Shown in pieces: positions 4,800-64,000 of a stretch of 64,000 nucleotides of DNA. The stretch's first letter is position 1. The number at the start of each line of letters is the position of its first letter. Source of the stretch: a phage; the sequence record PV805632.1; one strand, given 5' to 3'. Under the pieces are notes generated by a model. It was not told the DNA's origin and made no database searches. It was given only the letters and a program-made list of their open reading frames with translations. The position numbers were made by a program, and so were the translations under genes.

Positions 4800-5615
4800 A
4801 TGTACTCATCTATCGAACATCAGAAGCAACTCGAAGTACTATTCAATAAAAATCAGCTCCTGCCAAGGATGCGAAAAGAGTTCGAGGACTCCAAAGAAAT
4901 TGACTTTAAGGCATTCGCTGCCTATTTAGAAATTGATTATAAGCTGCTCATTGATGCAATGGTGCAGATTGCCCTACATAAACGTGCTGACATCCAGACT
5001 ATGATTGGCTCCCTCATGAGCCACTCAGATGATGCTCAGTACATCGCTGACTGTCTGTATAAGATGGCAGAGAATGACTGTTTCAACTATGACCCTACTA
5101 TCGACAAATTCGGTGTTATCTATGAGATTAGTGAAGATGTTCAGATGGAACTGGAAGCATTCCAGTATCCATTACCTATCGTAAGTGCTCCTAATCCTGT
5201 CAGAACTAACAGGGATACTGGTTATTACCAGACTAAAGGAAGCATCATCCTCAAGAAGAACCATCATGAGATGGATGTCTGCCTTGACCACATCAACCGT
5301 ATGAACAATCAACGTCTCTGTGTTAACTGGGACGTTGCTAACTATGTAAAAGACTCTCGTCCTAACATGGATAAACCCAAAGAGGGTGAAACCCGTCAGG
5401 ACTATGAGAAACGAGTTAAAGCCTTTGAGAAGTACAGTCGTACTGCTAAGGAAGTAATGGAGTTAGTGACTCAGGAAGGTAATAACTTCTCACTAGCACA
5501 TAAGTACGATAAGAGAGGGAGAACCTATGCCTGTGGTTACCACATTAACTATGCGGGAACCTCTTATAACAAAGCAGTCATAGAGTTCGCAGATAAAGAG
5601 CTTGTGGAGGACTAA
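4800..5615 (+). CDS. phage RNA polymerase II, small subunit (N4 gp15-like), 271 aa
   Basis: size and position match the N4 two-subunit T7-like RNAP II (about 269 + 404 aa); partner gene downstream carries the catalytic motifs. Confidence 0.6.
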   Translation: MYSSIEHQKQLEVLFNKNQLLPRMRKEFEDSKEIDFKAFAAYLEIDYKLLIDAMVQIALHKRADIQTMIGSLMSHSDDAQYIADCLYKMAENDCFNYDPTIDKFGVIYEISEDVQMELEAFQYPLPIVSAPNPVRTNRDTGYYQTKGSIILKKNHHEMDVCLDHINRMNNQRLCVNWDVANYVKDSRPNMDKPKEGETRQDYEKRVKAFEKYSRTAKEVMELVTQEGNNFSLAHKYDKRGRTYACGYHINYAGTSYNKAVIEFADKELVED

Positions 5616-6229
5616 TGAAAATGTGCAAAGACTGTGGAGAAGTTAAAGACCTCTCCCAGTTTGTACCTAAAGCATCCTGCACAGACGGCTACGAAGTACG
5701 CTGCCGTAGTTGCAGGGTACTCAAATACAATAAAGCTGATCCAGTTAAGATGTTTAAAAAGACATATATCTCTCAGGTGAACCACTCTGTAACGAGAGGT
5801 CATCCACCACCAGCTTATAGTCTGGAAGAGTTATATGACTGGCTGGATAACCAGCCAAACATTCATGAACTATGGGATGCTTACGTCACCAACAACTATG
5901 CTAAGGACTTAAAACCATCAATCGACCGCATAGATGACCTTAAGCCGTATACTCTTGATAACATTCAGTTAATGACGTGGAAAGAGAATAGGAACAAAGG
6001 TGCCAAGAGCAAAAAAGAAGGTGTTATTGGGAAGCATAAACCAGTGATTGCCTACCACTTGGATGGCTCAATCTATAAAGAATTTGTTAGTACCATTGAA
6101 GCTGCTAGACATGTGTCAGGCAGAGCATGGGGAATCACCACGGTAGCTGATGGCATACCAGTAAAGGATGGAAGGGGTAAGCTCTACAATCCTAAAACAT
6201 ACAAAGGCTACATCTGGGCCTGGAAATAA
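5615..6229 (+). CDS. HNH homing endonuclease with C-terminal IENR1/NUMOD-like DNA-binding motif (204 aa)
   Basis: N-terminal Cys cluster CKDCG...CRSC; HNH-like core IDRIDDLKPYTLDNIQLMTWKENRNKG; C-terminal KPV...F.S..EAARH..G.....GYIW motif typical of intron-encoded nuclease repeats. Confidence 0.6.
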   Translation: MKMCKDCGEVKDLSQFVPKASCTDGYEVRCRSCRVLKYNKADPVKMFKKTYISQVNHSVTRGHPPPAYSLEELYDWLDNQPNIHELWDAYVTNNYAKDLKPSIDRIDDLKPYTLDNIQLMTWKENRNKGAKSKKEGVIGKHKPVIAYHLDGSIYKEFVSTIEAARHVSGRAWGITTVADGIPVKDGRGKLYNPKTYKGYIWAWK

Positions 6230-8742: not shown

Positions 8743-8931
8743 ATGTATAAAGAGATTGCATTCTTCTCGTTCTTGTTAGGTGGGTTAATTGGTGCAGGAA
8801 TTGTAGCTATTTCTAATAACTACTTTGGTTCTACTCCAAATTCTGTAACACAAACCCTCAAGCATGAATGTGAATTGAATATCCCTCGTAATCAAAGCTG
8901 CGTAATGCAGTTCGTACCGGAGAAGAAATGA
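8743..8931 (+). CDS. small membrane protein (62 aa)
   Basis: ORF track; N-terminal hydrophobic helix. Confidence 0.4.
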   Translation: MYKEIAFFSFLLGGLIGAGIVAISNNYFGSTPNSVTQTLKHECELNIPRNQSCVMQFVPEKK

Positions 8932-9188
8932 ATATTCATAACCTACGTTTGGTTGAAAGACTGTATGAAGAATACAACGACAACCGACAGCAATTGGCTA
9001 GTCTAAAAAAGTCCCCGCATATGGTGAAAGTAACCTTCTGTGATACAGATTTGGGGGTACAAGCTCGTGCAAGCATAATCCCTAAATTACTAGCATTTTA
9101 TCAAAAGAAAGTGGATGACTTAGAGAAACGCCTGAAGCATTTAGGAGTTGATCTATCTTTATTACCTGAAGAAGAGGAAGAAGAGTGA
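8928..9188 (+). CDS. hypothetical protein (86 aa)
   Basis: ORF track; overlap coupling. Confidence 0.45.
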   Translation: MNIHNLRLVERLYEEYNDNRQQLASLKKSPHMVKVTFCDTDLGVQARASIIPKLLAFYQKKVDDLEKRLKHLGVDLSLLPEEEEEE

Positions 9189-9731: not shown

Positions 9732-10784
9732 ATGGCGAGCATTGACTCCTTGACTGTATGTAATACACGTCAAGCCCGTAACTTTATTATCCGTGCCTTG
9801 CAAGCAGGTAACGTACCGTTCCTGACTTCATCACCGGGTATGGGTAAGTCTGCAATTATTCGTTCTATTGCAGAAGAATTTGGTATGAAGCTGATTGACC
9901 ATCGTCTGTCTACTTCTGCCCCGGAAGACTTATCTGGTCTACCATTCCGTAATGGTGACCGTGCAGAGTTTATTCCATTTGCTGACTTATTCCCTATCGA
10001 GGGTGACGAAGTACCAGAAGGCTATAATGGCTGGCTCCTGTTCCTTGATGAGTTCAACTCAGCTAAAAAAGAAGTAGTAGCTGCTGCATACAAACTGATT
10101 CTAGACCGTATGACCGGGCAGAAAAAACTTCACCCTAATGTGATGATTATCTGTGCCGGTAATAAAGCTACTGACCGTGCTATCGTTAACCCACTGGGTA
10201 CTGCAATGCAGTCTCGCGTTGTCCACTTCGAAATGGAACTTAACTTCGACATTTTTGTTGAAGACGTAATGATTCCTCAAGAATGGGATGAGCGTCTGGT
10301 TGCATTCTTACATGCTAACCCTGGTTATCTGCACGACTTCGACCCTGCCCATAAGAACAAAACATTCTGTTGTCCACGTACCTGGGACTTTGTTAACAAA
10401 GACCTCAAGAACCGACCAGAAGGTGCTTTGCCTGATGAAGATTCTATCTACTATGCAGGCCACGTTACTGCTGGTAAGGCTACAGAGTTTGTTCAGTTCA
10501 CTCAGGTATACAATCGTATGATTACGATTGATAAGGTAGTCAAAGACCCTTTGGGCTGTGCACTACCAGAGGATAATAACCTGTGCTGGGCTACCGTTAA
10601 CCACCTGGCTAACAAGACCACTGAAGATAACTTCGTTGATGTACTTAAGTACATTGAACGCTTTAAAACGTTCACCCATAAGATTCTGTACTTCCGTACA
10701 GCAGGCAAAGCATTACCAGAAATTCAGGCTACCCCTGAATGGCGTAAAGCTGCTGCCAATATATCTCGTTACATTCACGGATAA
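9732..10784 (+). CDS. MoxR-like AAA+ ATPase (350 aa)
   Basis: Walker A SPGMGKSA, Walker B LLFLDEF; paired with VWA gene downstream. Confidence 0.6.
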   Translation: MASIDSLTVCNTRQARNFIIRALQAGNVPFLTSSPGMGKSAIIRSIAEEFGMKLIDHRLSTSAPEDLSGLPFRNGDRAEFIPFADLFPIEGDEVPEGYNGWLLFLDEFNSAKKEVVAAAYKLILDRMTGQKKLHPNVMIICAGNKATDRAIVNPLGTAMQSRVVHFEMELNFDIFVEDVMIPQEWDERLVAFLHANPGYLHDFDPAHKNKTFCCPRTWDFVNKDLKNRPEGALPDEDSIYYAGHVTAGKATEFVQFTQVYNRMITIDKVVKDPLGCALPEDNNLCWATVNHLANKTTEDNFVDVLKYIERFKTFTHKILYFRTAGKALPEIQATPEWRKAAANISRYIHG

Positions 10785-10791
10785 TCACAAC

Positions 10792-11967
10792 ATGAACCAG
10801 ATACCTCAGCACACACTTAGTGATGAACAACTCATGCGTGAGTATGACCGTATTCAGGCGCAGGCATTTCTTGGACGCAGTGCAGCGTTTTTTGGTTCAT
10901 TGCTGTGTAGTCTTAAGTTCTCATGGAAACGTGAGGGCTGTCCCACTGCATGTACCGATGGGATAGAACTCCATTTCAACCCAGACTTCTTTATCTGGAT
11001 GTGCCCTGATGCAAGAGAAACGGTGCTAATGCACGAACTCTGGCATGTGGCATACCTACATGGCATCCGTTGTGGAAGCCGTGACCCAGAAGTCTGGAAC
11101 CAGGCATGTGACCACTTCATTAACCTTCAGTTAGAGGAAGATGGTTACAAGTTCACTGGTATCGACGAAGGCATTTGCAAAGACCCTCAATATAAAGGAT
11201 GGGTCGAAGAAGACATCTACGATGACCTGATGAAGAACCCTCAGAAAAGGCAGAAGCCGTCAGGGGGTGCTGGAGCAGGTCTTGCTGGCGACATGAAAGC
11301 TCCCTCTTCGGGGCAGTCCCAGGGTGCTGTTGTCAACAACGTAGTACGTGCAATGCAAAGCCAGAAGATGGCTGGTGGAATGATGCCCGGTAAAGGTGCT
11401 GGTCGTATGGAAGAGGTTATTACCCAATTCCTTAAACCAGTGGTTCCTTGGCAGGAAGTCCTGCTGAACTTCTTTACCGACATTGATGGTACACACTATA
11501 CGTGGGCCAGACCTAACCGTCGTTTCACTGACGTCTATCTACCTTCTCTGGAAGATGATGAAGGACGCTTACGACACTTAGCCTACTTTGAGGATGTATC
11601 TGGTTCTATTAGTAGTGCTGACTCTCTGCGTTTTAACTCAGAGGTTGCCTACGTTAAGAGCCAGTTCAATCCTAAGAAGATGACCCTAATTACCTTCGAC
11701 GATATTATCCAAGAAGAAATAGACATCACTGAAGAAGATACTTTTGAAGAGATTAAGATTACTGGTCGTGGTGGTACAAACCTTGAACCAGTGCGTGAAT
11801 GGATCATTAAGAATAAGCCAACCGCTGCAATCATATTCTCCGATATGTATGTTCGTCCTATGGAAGAATTGCCATTTGATATCCCTATCATCTGGTGTGT
11901 TCTGAATAATCCTAATGCTACCGTACCTTTTGGGGAGGTAGTTCATATCCCTAAAGGAATGAAATAA
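10792..11967 (+). CDS. VWA-domain protein with N-terminal HExxH metallopeptidase-like motif (392 aa)
   Basis: HELWH motif; MIDAS-like DVSGSISS; ORF-track ORF 10558..11967 trimmed to first ATG after the upstream stop. Confidence 0.55.
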   Translation: MNQIPQHTLSDEQLMREYDRIQAQAFLGRSAAFFGSLLCSLKFSWKREGCPTACTDGIELHFNPDFFIWMCPDARETVLMHELWHVAYLHGIRCGSRDPEVWNQACDHFINLQLEEDGYKFTGIDEGICKDPQYKGWVEEDIYDDLMKNPQKRQKPSGGAGAGLAGDMKAPSSGQSQGAVVNNVVRAMQSQKMAGGMMPGKGAGRMEEVITQFLKPVVPWQEVLLNFFTDIDGTHYTWARPNRRFTDVYLPSLEDDEGRLRHLAYFEDVSGSISSADSLRFNSEVAYVKSQFNPKKMTLITFDDIIQEEIDITEEDTFEEIKITGRGGTNLEPVREWIIKNKPTAAIIFSDMYVRPMEELPFDIPIIWCVLNNPNATVPFGEVVHIPKGMK

Positions 11968-25932: not shown

Positions 25933-26216
25933 TGACTAAGCTCTCCGGTGGTCTTAATAACTACTATGTAGTTTCAATTAAGAATCCCCAACGGAAAGAG
26001 CAAGAGCCATATCAAGCAGAGTGTGAGGATATTATCCAAGCACTGGGCATGACCTTCGATGAAGGTTGTGCCTTTAAAGCTCTATGGCGAAATGCTGCTG
26101 CCCGTATGGGTAATGGTAAACCTGGCAACTCTTCAGTGTACGACTCAGAGAAGATTGTGCATTATGCCAATCGAATATTGAAAAAGGCTTACAATGAAAG
26201 TAACCAACAATCATGA
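25932..26216 (+). CDS. hypothetical protein (94 aa)
   Basis: ORF track. Confidence 0.45.
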   Translation: MTKLSGGLNNYYVVSIKNPQRKEQEPYQAECEDIIQALGMTFDEGCAFKALWRNAAARMGNGKPGNSSVYDSEKIVHYANRILKKAYNESNQQS

Positions 26217-31982: not shown

Positions 31983-32213
31983 TCTGGTAGGTGGCTCAGA
32001 AGCTGCTGCTAGGTGTGGTAGTGTTTATAGTCCTGATGCTACTACTGGTCAGGATTATAGACGTGTCGGCTCCATACATAGCTTTTATCATCACTGTCAT
32101 TATCCTGTGGAAATGCAGTGGTAAACACGGTGGTGACAAGCCGCCAGAATAACAACAACCGAACCAGTGGATTGGAATACTCTCCCCAGTCCATTGGTTC
32201 AACCGAGGCTAAT

Positions 32214-32384
32214 ATGAACAAATTTACTATTCACTGGCTCAATGGAATAGTTAGTTCTTTCATGGGTGGGGAACCTGTTGAAGGAAACAAAGCATTCCAC
32301 ATTGATTCAGAAGGCTGCAAAATCTTAGTACCATACGCTTGGTATAAGAATGGTGAAGTTGAAGCATTGAAAAAGAGCAGTTAA
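32214..32384 (+). CDS. hypothetical small protein (56 aa)
   Basis: ORF track 32118..32384; ATG 32214 with CCGAGG RBS preferred. Confidence 0.35.
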   Translation: MNKFTIHWLNGIVSSFMGGEPVEGNKAFHIDSEGCKILVPYAWYKNGEVEALKKSS

Positions 32385-33860: not shown

Positions 33861-33898
33861 AAGAAAGCCCCTCATTTGAGGGGCTTTCTTATTTATAC
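33861..33898. terminator. bidirectional intrinsic terminator (13-bp stem AAGAAAGCCCCTC / GAGGGGCTTTCTT)
   Basis: long perfect stem with T-runs on both strands, between convergent + and - units. Confidence 0.7.
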
Positions 33899-34495
33899 AG
33901 GATTTACTGTTTGAAATACCCTGACAGATACCTTAGTGAGTGTAATAGTTTGTCCACTAACGTTATGCATACCTAATTGTATGCCATTGACCATAAATGG
34001 GTCAGTGCTGCCCATGGTATATGTTGCAAGGTTTACTTCCTCGTTGCTTATATCATTACCCTGGAATTTAGAACTAAAAGCAGAACCCCTTATAGTTGTT
34101 CCATTGGGTCGTCTTGTTTGTGTTCTCCACTCTCTAACTGTCCCATCATCCCCGGCAATACTACCAGTAATCCGTACTACGAAAATTACTTGTGTATTGC
34201 CTTCTCTAGCAGGGAAGAGTAGATTGTTATCTAATATAGTAGTACCAGCAGTTCCTGCCGGATCCTTAGTTAAGCCTTCCAAACTAAAATAATTGAACCA
34301 GCTTGTATCAGTGATTGTCTGGCTTCCAGCCCAATCCCATATATCTAATAAAAAAGGATTTGGCAATTCTTTTGCCAAATCCTCGTCCGTTTTGGATGCA
34401 AGTATGCTTTTCCCCTTGTCTCCGATAAGGGTCATTCCACCCATAACCAAAGGCATTGCATCAAAACCCTGATCGTATTTGTCTTTAATGGTCAT
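33893..34495 (-). CDS. hypothetical protein downstream of the virion RNAP gene (200 aa)
   Basis: ORF track 33893..34531; start moved to ATG 34495 (MTIKDKYDQ) with GGGGA RBS, since 34531 lies inside the terminator hairpin. Confidence 0.5.
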   Translation of the reverse strand: MTIKDKYDQGFDAMPLVMGGMTLIGDKGKSILASKTDEDLAKELPNPFLLDIWDWAGSQTITDTSWFNYFSLEGLTKDPAGTAGTTILDNNLLFPAREGNTQVIFVVRITGSIAGDDGTVREWRTQTRRPNGTTIRGSAFSSKFQGNDISNEEVNLATYTMGSTDPFMVNGIQLGMHNVSGQTITLTKVSVRVFQTVNPV

Positions 34496-34523
34496 AAAGT
34501 CCCCGTAGATAATAATAAAAAGA

Positions 34524-34550
34524 AAGCCCACACTACTGGTGGGCTTTATT
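34524..34550. terminator. terminator hairpin AAGCCCAC-loop-GTGGGCTT with T-rich flanks
   Basis: 8-bp stem immediately after the virion RNAP stop. Confidence 0.6.
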
Positions 34551-59101: not shown

Positions 59102-59418
59102 GCGAATATCTCCCGTCTTGCAGCAGCCAATACACCAATAATTGCACCTGCACCAGCCCACACCCACTTACCAAAAATTCCAGCACCTGCAACCTTATGT
59201 TTAATGGTGATGAACTCTTCGATGGTAGGTTCAGACTTAGTGATGCTCTCCTCTACCCGTCTAAGTCGGGTACTAAGATCACCCATAGACTCGCTTAGCT
59301 TTTTAATAGACTCATCCATTTTCTCCCTTTCCCTCGATTCACGAGTTTGGTTTTCGAAAATGTTTCTCAGTCTCTCTTCGAGTCGGGCTAGAGTTACGTT
59401 ATCTGGTTCATTTCCCAT
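59086..59418 (-). CDS. coiled-coil protein with C-terminal transmembrane segment, possible lysis regulator (110 aa)
   Basis: ORF track; overlaps holin start by 16 nt. Confidence 0.4.
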   Translation of the reverse strand: MGNEPDNVTLARLEERLRNIFENQTRESREREKMDESIKKLSESMGDLSTRLRRVEESITKSEPTIEEFITIKHKVAGAGIFGKWVWAGAGAIIGVLAAARREIFAWFTS

Positions 59419-59488
59419 AGGGATTTTCTCAGGTTAGTTAAGTCGTAATTGACTGAAACAGTCTACATAAAGGTTTGATTGGGGTACA

Positions 59489-59515
59489 ACAAAAAAGCCC
59501 CTCCCTCATGGGCTT
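59489..59515 (-). terminator. intrinsic terminator AAGCCC-loop-GGGCTT with U-tract on the - strand
   Basis: hairpin plus T-run on - strand, downstream of tail-spike gene. Confidence 0.55.
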
Positions 59516-59540
59516 CGAAGATTAAATACTTTTTCTGATG

Positions 59541-59566
59541 ATAAAAATAACCCCGCCGAAGCGGGG
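59541..59566 (-). terminator. intrinsic terminator CCCCGC-CGAA-GCGGGG with U-tract on the - strand
   Basis: hairpin plus TTATTTTTAT on - strand; same core as 62170-62192. Confidence 0.65.
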
Positions 59567-59594
59567 CATAATTTTAGTTAACTGCTATGCCAGA

Positions 59595-62150
59595 TTAGCC
59601 CACATTACCAATAGTCATGCTGTACTCAAGAGTAAATAACTGACTAGAAGCAGACGTGTTATATAATCCTACATAACCAGATGTAGCTACAGTAGTAGAG
59701 AATGCAGACGTAGTTGCCGTGCCATCATCTGACTCTACGGTAAAGGTATGAGCACCAGTAGAGGCGGAAGTATATTCCCATACTTTAAAGCCTTTATCTT
59801 CACGAGTAGTATCACCAAATACTACCCAGTCAGTTGGGTTAGTATTGTTGAACGTACCGATGCACATATTACCTGCAGCATTCACACCGACTAACACACC
59901 AACATTAGTAAGTGGGTTATAGTTAAGTGCAATATAGGTGTTTTTCTTAAGACCTTTCGGTACAGCCAGATAACCTACAGATGCAGCATTATAAAGGTGA
60001 GAGTCTGCGGTTTTACTGAACTGAGTACCAGACAAAACTTCACCAAATACACCATAGTCATTGGCGTTAGACTGCTTCATTACTGGAGCAGGGCGGGTCA
60101 TGTTAGGTTCTTTGCTAAGACGAACCATCGGCAGCTTAACCCCATCCGTTTTGTAAGAACCAAACTTCAGCATAGGGAAGTAAGCATCAGTAGGACTACC
60201 ATCAATGATATAACGGATAAAGTTCAAACCTTTACGTAATCGCCCCATATAGGTAGTAAGGGTTTTGCCACCCCCAAAGTAACTCATGGCAGTCTTGCCA
60301 TTAAGCACGGTACGGTAGGCATTAATTTGAGTATTACGCTCTTGGTATTCACCGGACTCAATCAATGCTTTGCCCGCAGGAGACTCAACACGGATGTTGT
60401 GCTGTTGCCCAACAACGGCAGCATTAGTCCATGGTTCTAGAAGGGATACAGTCATACCTTCTTCTTCACACCATACCATTGTGGTCATGGTTACATTTTC
60501 ATTAGTTACACACTTAGACAGAAAACGGAATACGTTCAGAGCAGGAGCACCAGATACAGGTACATACTGTGGTGCATAGTGAGTACCGGAAGGATACCCT
60601 ACACAATCCCAATAGTTTTCTACAGCAGCCTGAGTGATCATATCCCCCGGTCTAACACGACGACAGTACTTATTACCAAGGGTCTGCATATACATCGCAT
60701 TACCCATAGCCATTTGTCCAAGTTCTTGTGGGTGAGTAGTATCCCAGGTTCCATCCTTCTTAACATAGTAGTAGTACCCAGTTTGCTCATTGCGGCTACT
60801 TGCACTAGTCAGATTTGGTCCCAAGTTAAAATACTCAACACCTAGTTTATCTGCCATGTACTTCTTAGTACTAAGCTCAAATGCCATACGTACTGAGTCA
60901 TTATCGTTGACTGTTACAATACCAACAGCACAACCGTAGCCCCATGCTTTACGAACAAACTTGTCAATCTGGTCACGGTAGGTAGCGATACTAGCACTAC
61001 TGTCATTCCAACCCATTGCAAGGATACATACACGAGGAGCTTCTGCACCATAGCGTGTGTTACCGAAGAACCCACGGTCGAAGTTACGATAGCCCCAACC
61101 GTCGGATAACTTCTTACCAGATACGGAACAGTTAGCTGATTGGTAAATAGTTTCACCACTACGACGAGACTGTGTGAGCAACAAGCCATTCATCCAGTGT
61201 TCAGTCCATGAGTGGGAACCTCCAGATAAAGAATGATTGTATGTACTTGGGGCATCTAAGTCACCATCTGAGTTAGTTGGCGGAGAACTCCAGTCCTGTT
61301 TACCCCATGCACCATCAGTAATGGAATCGCCAATGATACCGATACGACAAAATGTCTGGTCACGGAATGCACAGTATATTTCGTCATTAACGGTTTTATT
61401 GTTACCATTCATTGAAGCAGCAATGTCAAACGTATGGTCCTTTGCATACCACTGGTTTTTAACAATAAGTTTGCCTTCCCCAACAAACTTACGGACATCA
61501 TCATCGGGGAGTAAGTTACAACGAATGGTAACACCCTTAGGGATAAAGATTTTACCGGGGAAAGCATAAGCAGCTGCACGGTTATCCGTAGTAGTATTAA
61601 CAACAATACCAGGAACATCATATACGGAAGTAGAACCAACAGGAGGAATTAGACCACTGTTTAATTCTTGTCGTATTAATTCATCATTAGCAATAACCCA
61701 TGCAGTGGGAGAAATACCACCTGCACTAAACGGAGTAGAGTTAAGTGGTACGCTCTTGGGTAACCCACCAGCCCAGCGATACTGCGTGCCATTATGAGTA
61801 AGCAACTCATTCTTGGTCTGTATAACTGAGCCAGAAGTAAACGTATCCGGTAAAGTTACATATTCTTTGCGAGTAACAGCTAATGCACCTAAGTCCACGC
61901 TACCAGCAGAGTGAACTAATACACCAGCAGGGCTAAGGCTTATAGCAGTAACACCTGAACCAATGTTAGCAGGTAAGGAATAAGCACGTTGTGTAGCTTT
62001 GTCATAGATGACTTTGTAACCAGTAAGCAGAGCACCCACTGAGAAGTAAACAACCTCAGATTGTTTAACCCCAAAGTGACGTGCTATTGCTTGTTTATTG
62101 GTTAGGATTCCTGTTGAACCCTTACCGCCTTGTGAGAACATTTCGTTCAT
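59595..62150 (-). CDS. tail spike with SGNH/GDSL esterase domain (851 aa)
   Basis: GDSL block GIIGDSITDG, GxND block AMGWNDSS, DxxH block WDTTHP; resembles the esterase tail spike of G7C-type N4-like phages (recalled). Confidence 0.6.
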   Translation of the reverse strand: MNEMFSQGGKGSTGILTNKQAIARHFGVKQSEVVYFSVGALLTGYKVIYDKATQRAYSLPANIGSGVTAISLSPAGVLVHSAGSVDLGALAVTRKEYVTLPDTFTSGSVIQTKNELLTHNGTQYRWAGGLPKSVPLNSTPFSAGGISPTAWVIANDELIRQELNSGLIPPVGSTSVYDVPGIVVNTTTDNRAAAYAFPGKIFIPKGVTIRCNLLPDDDVRKFVGEGKLIVKNQWYAKDHTFDIAASMNGNNKTVNDEIYCAFRDQTFCRIGIIGDSITDGAWGKQDWSSPPTNSDGDLDAPSTYNHSLSGGSHSWTEHWMNGLLLTQSRRSGETIYQSANCSVSGKKLSDGWGYRNFDRGFFGNTRYGAEAPRVCILAMGWNDSSASIATYRDQIDKFVRKAWGYGCAVGIVTVNDNDSVRMAFELSTKKYMADKLGVEYFNLGPNLTSASSRNEQTGYYYYVKKDGTWDTTHPQELGQMAMGNAMYMQTLGNKYCRRVRPGDMITQAAVENYWDCVGYPSGTHYAPQYVPVSGAPALNVFRFLSKCVTNENVTMTTMVWCEEEGMTVSLLEPWTNAAVVGQQHNIRVESPAGKALIESGEYQERNTQINAYRTVLNGKTAMSYFGGGKTLTTYMGRLRKGLNFIRYIIDGSPTDAYFPMLKFGSYKTDGVKLPMVRLSKEPNMTRPAPVMKQSNANDYGVFGEVLSGTQFSKTADSHLYNAASVGYLAVPKGLKKNTYIALNYNPLTNVGVLVGVNAAGNMCIGTFNNTNPTDWVVFGDTTREDKGFKVWEYTSASTGAHTFTVESDDGTATTSAFSTTVATSGYVGLYNTSASSQLFTLEYSMTIGNVG

Positions 62151-62169
62151 ATAAACCTCTTTGTTTTTC

Positions 62170-62192
62170 TAAGAAACCCCGCCGAAGCGGGG
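62170..62192 (-). terminator. terminator hairpin CCCCGC-CGAA-GCGGGG (second copy)
   Basis: identical core to 59551-59566; in the 47-bp gap between the two tail-spike genes. Confidence 0.5.
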
Positions 62193-62197
62193 GTATT

Positions 62198-64000
62198 CTA
62201 CCTGATAATGAACTTACCGAGGCTAATATCATTTATCAAAGTTGCTACTATGTTTGCCAGTTGGGTGGTTGTTAACGTGTTCACATCACCACCACGCAAC
62301 TGTCCGGCGTTGGTGAACGGGAACTGCTGAGGCTGAGCGCTATTGTAGAACTGGTTACCCTCTTCATACCGAGAAGACGGCGTAGAAGTGTAAAGGATTC
62401 CTTTAGTAGTCGCAGGAACAGAACAATTCACGATGTTTACATGACCAGCGATGCCAACGCACTCGATAGGGCGATCAACAGTACCAAACGGTTGAACACC
62501 AACCAGGCGATGCACGTTCAAGCTCTGAGCTGCCTGCGCGTACAGATAAGAACTAGGCTGCCCGTTAACACCTCTGATGTTCCAGTTATCCACTTCAATA
62601 TGACGGGCATTATGAATCTGACAGATTGCTTGACCGTCTGCATCAGGAAATGCGCCAACAATACGCACGTTCTTCATAGTGATGTCGGAAGTAGCTGTTG
62701 CGTTCAACCCGCAGTTAATCATAACAGCTTTAGACCCAGATTGTGTGCAGTGGATTGTTAACCCATCGAATTCAATATCACCTAGATTTACCGTGTGAGA
62801 GGATCCATCCTTACGCAAAAAGAATACAGCCCAATCTGTGTGACCTGTTATTAAGATATTACTAAATCGCAGGCGTGTGCAGACTACCGGATAATATCGA
62901 CAGAGGATTGGCTGTGAACAATTCTTGATTGTGATGTTGTCATACGTGACATCACTGGAACCCTCAATCGCAATACCCGCATTACATGCTTCAATGTAAG
63001 CACCGGTCACACTTCCGTTGGTGAAGTTTGCGCGGATGCCATGCGATTCACAGTTCTTAATTGTTACGTTGCTAATGTTGACGCGAGTAATTGCAGTACC
63101 ATTACCGCCGCCAACACCAGTAACCAAATCGTCAGACTGAAGACGCAAACCGTTACCGCCGGATCCATTAATACTAATATCATGAATCATCACATTAAGC
63201 GTGCGACCGGGACGTGTTGAAGTCATAAACACAGAAGATGCCCATGTGTCTCTAGTACGGATATGATGTATATGTGCTTCTGTTGCGTTCCCAACAATAA
63301 TCGCCATACCCTGACGGTTGCTGCCGTCCGGCTGTTGGATTTGTCCACGCCCACAATCGTGAGAATACAGGTTGTTTGCAAGCGTCCATCTACCATAATC
63401 CATTGTTACGTTGCTATTCCATGCCCCCTGCAATTCACACCCTGAAAGCTCAAGCGTACCAGCAGATTGCATAGCCAACCCAACGCCAGGGTCAAATGAC
63501 GCATCCTGTCGGTAGAAATCAAAAAGGAAGTTACCGACAATGCGGATGTCATAAGGGGTATAGTCATATTCATTGTTTGTATCATTCCATGTTCTCGGTG
63601 AACGCAGCCAGAACTGACGCGAATCTACCGTCACTTTCGGTAATAGCGGTTTGAGGTGAATATCCCCCTGGATGGTGAATATACCCTCAACTGTAACCGG
63701 TGAATAGCCAATGTAAATATTACCTGCCTTTGGTAGTAGGCGCGAAAGCTGCGCATCGTTCTGCGCAATCTTCCAGCCAGTGATCACTTCGTTGAAGAAC
63801 GAAGCCGGATATAGCTCGTGAGCGCCGTTAATGACGGTCTGGTCGAAACTGGTGACTGTCACAGATGACGTAAGCGCGGAACCCAACATCATCAGATTGC
63901 CACTCACCCTGACAAACAGTACTCCTGACGGAATAACATCACCGACAGACAACGAACGGTTATTTTCTGTTGGGAAGCACGAACCACCGTAAAAACCTGA
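62198..64000 (-). CDS. tail spike/fibre with right-handed beta-helix repeats; 5' end beyond the window
   Basis: repeated NVTIKNC / ITIKNCS segments; frame stays open on the - strand to position 64000, so the N-terminus is outside the window. Confidence 0.5.
   Translation of the reverse strand, partial: SGFYGGSCFPTENNRSLSVGDVIPSGVLFVRVSGNLMMLGSALTSSVTVTSFDQTVINGAHELYPASFFNEVITGWKIAQNDAQLSRLLPKAGNIYIGYSPVTVEGIFTIQGDIHLKPLLPKVTVDSRQFWLRSPRTWNDTNNEYDYTPYDIRIVGNFLFDFYRQDASFDPGVGLAMQSAGTLELSGCELQGAWNSNVTMDYGRWTLANNLYSHDCGRGQIQQPDGSNRQGMAIIVGNATEAHIHHIRTRDTWASSVFMTSTRPGRTLNVMIHDISINGSGGNGLRLQSDDLVTGVGGGNGTAITRVNISNVTIKNCESHGIRANFTNGSVTGAYIEACNAGIAIEGSSDVTYDNITIKNCSQPILCRYYPVVCTRLRFSNILITGHTDWAVFFLRKDGSSHTVNLGDIEFDGLTIHCTQSGSKAVMINCGLNATATSDITMKNVRIVGAFPDADGQAICQIHNARHIEVDNWNIRGVNGQPSSYLYAQAAQSLNVHRLVGVQPFGTVDRPIECVGIAGHVNIVNCSVPATTKGILYTSTPSSRYEEGNQFYNSAQPQQFPFTNAGQLRGGDVNTLTTTQLANIVATLINDISLGKFIIR

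Follow-up and report, generated by a model that had tools for sequence, protein, structure and literature searches.

A natural allele of the G7C gp63.1 esterase tailspike and the adjoining gp66 gene in a G7C-like phage genome

The DNA analyzed here is a 64,000-nt stretch of phage sequence (PV805632.1; hereafter, the window), and the whole of it is colinear with phage G7C at about 96% nucleotide identity. We conclude that the window is a G7C-like Gamaleyavirus genome, that of an N4-family podophage. Two adjacent minus-strand genes make up the locus under study. One, found in the ORF listing at 59595..62150 (ATG start, 851 amino acids plus stop), encodes an esterase tailspike that is an allele of G7C gp63.1. 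The other, at 62198..64000, is the 3' part of the tail spike/fiber gene gp66 and encodes residues 464 to 1063 of 1063; the gene is cut by the window end, and its start lies beyond base 64000. The initial annotation had the neighbor running off the window, and indeed, its minus-strand frame is open to base 64000. A complete 584-aa ORF with a TTG start at 62198..63952 was also considered for the neighbor and was rejected because direct translation continues to base 64000. The gene order gp63/gp63.1/gp66 is the same as in G7C. Elsewhere, a Pfam search of window-specific ORFs outside the spike locus returned DUF7279 as the only useful match.

The 851-aa protein shares 836 of its 851 residues with G7C gp63.1 (98.2% amino acid identity over the full length, with 15 substitutions), and the gp63.1 locus is 98.4% identical in nucleotide sequence to the G7C genome, HQ259105. 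The crystal structure of G7C gp63.1 (AEL79675.1) is PDB 4QNL, and the homology check proposed in the initial annotation, carried out with phmmer, matched 4QNL over aa 1 to 851 of 851 at 1944 bits. Five Pfam models scored above their gathering thresholds (Tail_spike_N, Gp63_3rd_G7C, SGNH, G7C_GBD, and G7C_C), and the three G7C-specific tailspike domains among them gave E values from 8e-41 to 2e-122. The assignment is not a chance match, as the Lipase_GDSL model exceeded its gathering score, the G7C-specific domains were present, and phmmer recovered 4QNL. Thus, a protein that had been likened to the O-antigen-deacetylating spikes of G7C-type phages is an allele of G7C gp63.1 itself, with an identical SGNH domain. 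We conclude that the gene encodes an already characterized G7C-type esterase tailspike and that only the allele is new.

The domains of the protein follow one another along the minus strand. The N-terminal attachment region (aa 1 to 170; 61641..62150), which would dock onto gp66, contains Tail_spike_N (PF18668; aa 91 to 153, within 61641..62150; E = 2.6e-14), and by phmmer it matches the N termini of CBA120 TSP1, TSP3, and TSP4 and of B2 gp48. Domain 3 of the G7C tailspike comes next (PF21562, Gp63_3rd_G7C; aa 179 to 244; 61419..61616; E = 8e-41), followed by the SGNH/GDSL esterase domain (PF00657; aa 270 to 485; 60696..61343). Two carbohydrate-binding-module-like domains complete the protein, the first of them galactose-binding-like (PF21988, G7C_GBD; aa 514 to 665; 60156..60611; E = 1e-106) and the second C terminal (PF22245, G7C_C; aa 669 to 848; 59607..60146; E = 2e-122). 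In functional terms, gp63.1 joins a docking region at its N terminus to an SGNH esterase domain and, toward the C terminus, a pair of carbohydrate-binding-like domains. The G7C protein is a homotrimer in its crystal structure.

The claim that GDSITDG, GWND, and DTTHP mark an SGNH hydrolase in an 851-aa tail protein held, on the minus strand. The three motifs lie at aa 274 to 280, 380 to 383, and 470 to 474, respectively, and Lipase_GDSL (PF00657) scored 26.6 bits against a gathering cutoff of 23.6. SGNH blocks I (GDS), II (G), III (GxND), and V (DxxH) are all present in the spike. Their key codons are those of block I Ser276 (61323-61325), block II Gly345 (61116-61118), block III Asn382 (61005-61007), and block V Asp470 (60741-60743) and His473 (60732-60734), all on the minus strand. 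In an alignment of 28 homologues of the spike with a mean column identity of 27%, G274, D275, S276, G380, N382, D383, D470, and H473 were invariant, and G345 was conserved in at least 90%. The catalytic triad of gp63.1 would be Ser276/Asp470/His473, with Gly345 and Asn382 as oxyanion residues. An SGNH domain could instead be a catalytically dead binding module in a spike that serves as an adhesin only, but the catalytic and oxyanion residues are all intact and conserved in the family. Moreover, no residue of the domain differs from G7C gp63.1, for which enzymatic activity is reported to be essential for infection (PMC10743462), and the Schitoviridae spikes Moo19 gp82 and B2 gp48/49 hydrolyze 4-nitrophenyl acetate. 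We regard a dead module as very improbable and an active esterase as the reading to be preferred.

What that esterase does is known from G7C. G7C gp63.1 is reported to deacetylate the O22-like O antigen of E. coli 4s while the backbone stays uncut (PMC10743462; PMC6393563), and its deacetylase activity is reported as essential for G7C infection (PMC10743462). Growth of phages with the G7C-type allele is restricted to wild-type, acetylated E. coli 4s (bioRxiv 10.1101/542787). The spike might alternatively be a lyase or glycosidase that cleaves the polysaccharide backbone, as the sister phages Alt63, N4G2, and Sz33 carry an O-polysaccharide-depolymerizing gp63.1 allele at the same position (bioRxiv 10.1101/542787). 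The C-terminal part of the Alt63-type allele is unrelated, however (bioRxiv 10.1101/542787), and the window protein aligns throughout with G7C gp63.1 and has an SGNH domain and no beta-helix. Backbone cleavage also runs counter to the intact O-polysaccharide reported for G7C gp63.1 (PMC10743462; PMC6393563). We therefore rejected an Alt63-type identity given the full-length alignment with the esterase allele, and a backbone-cleaving activity of this spike is hardly credible. Because its catalytic domain is identical to that of G7C gp63.1, we infer that the window allele has esterase activity; by analogy, it would behave like G7C gp63.1, as an essential deacetylase docked on gp66.

How the allele differs from that of G7C is a matter of where the substitutions fall. 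Changes cluster in the docking domain and the two carbohydrate-binding-like domains, and the esterase domain is unchanged in amino acid sequence. The N-terminal docking region accounts for five of the 15 substitutions and domain 3 for one; another is L505I, and the other eight are in the carbohydrate-binding-like domains, with S583Q, V592A, and F597I in G7C_GBD and G722A, R732K, A770T, S796A, and P832T in G7C_C. Residues 206 to 504, SGNH domain included, are identical to those of G7C gp63.1. Codons 251 to 504 carry four synonymous and no nonsynonymous nucleotide differences, and the fifth nucleotide difference in the codon block 251 to 510 is L505I, at the margin of the esterase domain. If 15 substitutions were placed at random, the probability that all of them would miss the 254 residues from 251 to 504 would be (597/851)^15, or approximately 0.005. 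A substitution-free esterase domain fits purifying selection on the esterase.

The same substitutions bear on another reading, in which the spike belongs to the same family but its carbohydrate-binding-like and N-terminal changes have shifted receptor specificity to a different acetylated O antigen or to a variant host. The carbohydrate-binding-like domains of gp63.1 have been proposed to form an LPS-binding valley (PMC13082707), and because 8 of the 15 substitutions (aa 583, 592, 597, 722, 732, 770, 796, and 832) sit in these proposed contact domains, the fine specificity of the window allele could differ. Small changes can matter, as the single substitution R421P was reported by itself to switch the host specificity of G7C (bioRxiv 10.1101/542787). 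Moreover, the exact 851-aa sequence was absent from a protein collection of about 15 billion entries. Most of the substitutions are conservative, however (G/A, R/K, S/A, V/A, and L/I), and the esterase domain, which has an O-antigen binding site of its own, matches the G7C domain residue for residue and keeps Arg421. Phages of the G7C set that carry the G7C-type allele also share a narrow host range on E. coli 4s (bioRxiv 10.1101/542787). We consider a shift of receptor unlikely and favor a gp63.1 allele with G7C-like function. A more speculative suggestion is that the eight carbohydrate-binding-like-domain substitutions could tune O-antigen binding. The window adds one natural allele, whose substitution pattern is mildly useful for mapping the surfaces of gp63.1 that tolerate change.

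The gene is flanked by repeated hairpins. Upstream, a Shine-Dalgarno-like AAGAGG, read from the sequence, lies 5 nt before the ATG of the esterase spike (62156..62161, minus strand). In the interval that separates the end of gp66 from the start codon of gp63.1, the terminator scan found a terminator-like hairpin, CCCCGC-UUCG-GCGGGG (62177..62192, minus strand), with an RNA folding energy of -14.4 kcal/mol. The gp66-gp63.1 intergenic region, hairpin included, is identical to that of G7C, and HQ259105 lists the hairpin as a repeat_region. Exchange of the spike module has been proposed to have its recombination boundary at this conserved stem-loop, which marks the swap point (bioRxiv 10.1101/542787). 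A second copy of the hairpin, found as an exact 16-nt repeat and by the terminator scan, sits 28 nt past the stop codon of gp63.1 and is followed by a T-run (59550..59567, minus strand); the scan reported it as 7 pairs plus TATTTTTAT. This downstream copy probably terminates transcription of the spike operon.

The part of the neighboring gene product within the window matches G7C gp66 (AEL79676.1) at 595 of 600 residues (99.2%; five substitutions) and phrog_12242, "tail protein," at E = 3e-149, and it comprises the end of a gp10-like attachment region and a C-terminal right-handed beta-helix module. The first 463 residues of G7C gp66, which comprise the virion anchor, XD2, and the larger part of XD3, match PDB 9D80, 9D83, and 5W6H. 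A PDB sequence search with full-length G7C gp66 gave matches only to residues 1 to 480 and none for the C-terminal module, and Pfam on the window part gave Pectate_lyase_5 alone, below threshold (E = 0.079); the C-terminal fold was therefore tested by modeling. The AlphaFold2 model (pLDDT 85.8; pTM 0.83) is an almost unbroken series of short strands. All hits listed by Foldseek were beta-helix proteins, nearly all of them polysaccharide-active enzymes or tailspikes and including HK620, Sf6, and CBA120 TSP3, and their scores (E = 4e-5 to 3e-3; TM 0.26 to 0.40) indicate a common fold class only and identify no enzyme family. Close relatives of the module carry PF13229 (Beta_helix) and the NCBI name "right-handed parallel beta-helix repeat." The model, the Foldseek hits, and these relatives support a right-handed parallel beta-helix as the predicted fold of the module.

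Relatives of the gp66 module are found on other tail proteins. Shigella phage MK-13 and Enterobacter phage fGh-Ecl02 have the module in their tail spikes (82 to 84% nucleotide identity); it also occurs on E. coli prophage tailspikes of the P22-like type (70 to 87% amino acid identity) and in proteins of Enterobacter hormaechei (83 to 85% amino acid identity). The host of MK-13 is S. boydii type 1. Among complete E. coli genomes, only 27 matched the module, at 71 to 75% nucleotide identity over 41 to 58% of the query, and no target O serogroup was assigned from these prophage hosts because the matches are too distant. Several acidic residues (D241, E287, E296, and D389 in fragment numbering) were invariant in 20 homologues, and none was placed in an active site. 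The initial annotation had described beta-helix repeats typical of depolymerases; the beta-helix is borne out by the model, Foldseek, and PF13229 in relatives, and the depolymerase part is hypothetical. The beta-helix might actively depolymerize another surface polysaccharide and so provide these phages with a second, latent host, a suggestion that we view as doubtful. Likewise, the proposal that the two spikes together define host range is established for gp63.1 and only hypothesized for the gp66 C-terminal module. The main role described for gp66 is that of an adaptor, anchored to the virion and bearing gp63.1 (PMC6393563; PMC8825819; PMC13082707).

Taken together, the locus is very probably the host-recognition module of a G7C-like phage, with the 851-aa protein as its gp63.1 allele, an O-acetyl esterase docked on gp66. 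In G7C, gp63.1 is reported to be joined to the virion through gp66 in a branched receptor-binding complex (PMC6393563; PMC8825819; PMC13082707), with the contact placed at the XD3 domain of gp66 (PMC8825819). On this basis, the N-terminal part of gp66 (residues 1 to 463, outside the window) would anchor to the virion, with gp63.1 borne on the gp10-like XD3 domain, giving a branched two-spike adhesin. In a first step, gp63.1 would bind the O-acetylated O22-like O antigen of the E. coli host. It would then remove the O-acetyl groups, reportedly processively, leaving the polysaccharide backbone uncut, and deacetylation would allow the virion to pass through the O-antigen layer and would license DNA ejection. 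For the gp66 C-terminal beta-helix, binding of a second polysaccharide is probable and its cleavage possible. Modification of O antigen by deacetylation instead of cutting has a textbook example in the G7C gp63.1/gp66 adhesin, with a crystal structure, biochemistry, and genetics behind it, and to that account the window adds little.

Among known systems, the closest is G7C gp63.1 itself, which has the same length as the window spike (851 aa), the same five domains and genomic position, and the same flanking hairpins and neighbors. The phages Alt63, N4G2, and Sz33 have been described as almost identical to G7C (PMC10743462; bioRxiv 10.1101/542787). Their gp63.1 allele shares the locus and the conserved N-terminal docking part with the window spike but has a C-terminal O-polysaccharide depolymerase (lyase) that does not need O-acetylation, whereas the allele in the window is the G7C-type one, the esterase. 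Moo19 gp82 and B2 gp48/gp49 (PDB 9D80-9D84) are spikes of N4-family Schitoviridae with 4QNL-like topology and esterase activity. With phmmer, similarity between these and the window spike is detectable in the N-terminal region only (the N terminus of B2 spike 9D84 is homologous to aa 1 to 189; E = 3e-71), and the phages differ in having Shigella hosts and in not being inactivated by LPS alone. The Ackermannviridae spikes, CBA120 TSP1-4 and those of Det7, have N-terminal docking domains homologous to that of the window spike (PF18668; phmmer E = 1e-47 to 1e-67) and follow the same principle of spikes docked on gp10-like XD domains (PMC8825819), but these phages are myoviruses with four spikes, and the spikes are beta-helix glycosidases instead of an SGNH esterase. 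Finally, gp66 of Pectobacterium phage Possum is an N4-like receptor-binding protein whose SGNH domain O-deacetylates the host O-polysaccharide; it differs from the window spike in its distant sequence, in its other C-terminal receptor-binding domain, and in an extra N-terminal helical part.

The minus-strand gene at 59595-62150 is an esterase allele of gp63.1, a tailspike of the N4-family Escherichia phage vB_EcoP_G7C, rather than the alternative lyase (Alt63-type) allele. The predicted reading frame was present, encoding 851 amino acids from an ATG at 62150 that lies 5 nt downstream of a Shine-Dalgarno-like AAGAGG, and it contained every SGNH hydrolase motif quoted in the initial annotation (GDSITDG, residues 274 to 280; GWND, residues 380 to 383; and DTTHP, residues 470 to 474). 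By phmmer against the PDB, residues 1 to 851 matched 4QNL_A ("Tail fiber protein") at 1944 bits. By megablast against GenBank phages, the best match for 59400-64000 was vB_EcoP_G7C (100% coverage, 98.4% identity), and the runners-up covered the query only partially. The counterparts in the G7C record are gp63.1 and gp66, flanked by gp63 and gp67 and located downstream of the lysis cassette and portal gene. The whole window was colinear with G7C by blastn at ~95 to 97% identity and is a G7C-like genome that reads from the left terminal repeat. Compared with G7C gp63.1, 15 of the 851 residues are substituted. The exact sequence found no match in a collection of ~15 billion proteins, where the G7C cluster has only three members and the next relatives are at most 56% identical.

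Five Pfam domains were placed on the spike: Tail_spike_N (residues 91 to 153, E = 2.6e-14), Gp63_3rd_G7C (179 to 244, E = 8e-41), Lipase_GDSL (270 to 485, 26.6 bits against a cutoff of 23.6), G7C_GBD (514 to 665, E = 9.6e-107), and G7C_C (669 to 848, E = 2e-122). The protein was aligned with 27 homologues from phages and prophages of Escherichia, Enterobacter, Proteus, Providencia, Citrobacter, and Vibrio. Mean column identity was 27%, and SGNH blocks I (G274, D275, and S276), III (G380, N382, and D383), and V (D470 and H473) were invariant throughout, while the block II glycine, G345, was at least 90% conserved. The N-terminal anchors differed among the homologues and included Tail_spike_N, P22 head-binding, tail-collar, and T7 fibre domains, a variety that is usual for modular receptor-binding proteins. 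Homology, domains, and conserved residues each agreed with the proposed G7C-type esterase spike, and the initial annotation correctly recognized a system that is already known.

None of the 15 substitutions relative to G7C fell within residues 206 to 504; the two carbohydrate-binding-like domains together hold eight of them, and another five affect the N-terminal docking region. Codons 251 to 504 differed from G7C by four synonymous and zero nonsynonymous changes. By our own calculation, 15 random substitutions would all miss those 254 residues with a probability of (597/851)^15, or ~0.005. The pattern fits purifying selection on the esterase, not a recent copy. A change of Arg421 to Pro reportedly alters which host G7C is specific for (bioRxiv 10.1101/542787); the window allele keeps Arg421.

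How G7C uses gp63.1 is described in two reports (PMC10743462, PMC6393563). There, gp63.1 strips the O22-like O-antigen of E. coli 4s of its lateral O-acetyl groups, seemingly processively, and leaves the backbone intact; infection requires the deacetylase activity, and both rough and nonacetylated mutants are resistant. The gp66 protein attaches gp63.1 to the virion and needs its T4 gp10-like XD3 domain to bind it, and the two form a branched adhesin thought to relay the DNA-release signal (PMC6393563, PMC8825819, PMC13082707). Because the catalytic domain is identical and the locus organization is the same, the window allele very probably works by the same mechanism. We infer the activity and exact specificity of the window allele itself, as well as any activity of the gp66 beta-helix.

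The neighbouring gene, gp66, does run off the end of the window as annotated, in a minus-strand frame open from 62198 through the last base. A complete 584-residue ORF beginning at TTG was rejected as a mechanical start only, the frame being open to the final base. The 600 residues present (464 to 1063) differ from G7C at 5 positions. PDB matches to full-length G7C gp66 ended at residue 480, with none over the C-terminal module, and Pfam gave that module only a subthreshold pectate-lyase-like match. A homology search found 121 relatives, whose N-terminal anchor was Tail_spike_N, a P22 head-binding domain, or absent; in some, Pfam placed PF13229 Beta_helix or NCBI had assigned the name "right-handed parallel beta-helix repeat-containing protein." An AlphaFold2 model built on an alignment of 20 sequences (pLDDT 85.8, pTM 0.83) contained a long run of short strands. 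Foldseek matched the model to beta-helix proteins in the PDB, nearly all polysaccharide-active enzymes or phage tailspikes (including GH87 glucanase, PL6 lyase, HK620, Sf6, CBA120 TSP3, and K64-1 depolymerase), at E values of ~4e-5 to 3e-3 and low TM-scores of 0.26 to 0.40. The model and these matches, along with the names and domains of relatives, support the beta-helix proposed for gp66 as a predicted fold class, but they pointed to no particular enzyme family or active site.

The module has close copies elsewhere. At 62198-63850 (minus strand), it shares 84% nucleotide identity with a tail spike of Shigella phage MK-13, a phage of Ackermannviridae size (158.8 kb) whose host is S. boydii type 1, and 82% with one of Enterobacter phage fGh-Ecl02 (phage records compared, MK509462 and ON212266). 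Prophage tailspikes of E. coli and Enterobacter carry it too, with 70 to 87% amino acid identity to those of the P22-like type. Podophages, myophages, and temperate phages clearly share one receptor-binding module here. That gp66 may extend the host range has already been considered in the literature.

Each spike gene is followed by the same 16-nt palindrome, which reads CCCCGC-UUCG-GCGGGG on the coding strand. The copy after gp66 occupies 62177-62192, ahead of the gp63.1 start codon, and the copy after gp63.1 occupies 59551-59566, where a T-run follows. Both copies were terminator-like by scan, and the G7C record annotates them as repeat regions. A preprint on G7C and its sister phages describes the stem-loop that separates genes 63.1 and 66, notes its conservation at the edge of the exchanged spike modules, and proposes a role in recombination (bioRxiv 10.1101/542787). 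A second possible hairpin (GAAGCCC ... GGGCUUU, then a U-run) lies at 59490-59516 (minus strand), ~35 nt 3' of the first terminator; it was seen in the centroid fold only and was not called by the terminator scan. The arrangement suggests tandem terminators after gp63.1, ahead of gene 63.

Elsewhere, the G7C homing-endonuclease genes gp2.1, gp24.1, gp41.1, and gp47.1 are absent, at otherwise colinear junctions (1337-1349, 10784-10801, 26176-26194, and 32179-32221); near 26176-26194, ~226 bp of the G7C gp41 3' end also has no counterpart. In place of the HNH endonuclease gp15.1, which in G7C separates the genes of the RNAP1 B subunit and the RNAP2 A subunit, the window has an unrelated 204-residue ORF (5615-6229, plus strand) that had no match in Pfam and is 75% identical to "endonuclease VII" or "endonuclease" ORFs of Shigella phage pSb-1 and Escherichia phage HK2. 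Just 3' of the virion RNA polymerase gene, a 212-residue ORF (33893-34531, minus strand) with no G7C counterpart matched phrog_17779 (unknown function) and is ~53 to 57% identical to ORFs of pSb-1, Bp4, PD38, and UE-S5b/UE-M3. The UE-S5b and UE-M3 relatives are annotated "tail needle knob," and if that is right, the ORF would set the window apart from G7C in one more virion or host-interaction feature. Finally, early-region ORFs at 1423-2128 and 8928-9188 (both plus strand) are divergent from, or missing in, G7C; a 99-residue ORF matched DUF7279, and ORFs of 134 and 86 residues had no Pfam match.

Sister phages of G7C carry the Alt63-type lyase allele at the genomic position where the window carries the esterase allele (bioRxiv 10.1101/542787). 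Since the work on G7C, related esterase spikes have been described in other Schitoviridae, namely, Moo19 and B2 (cryo-EM structures 9D80-9D84) and Possum.
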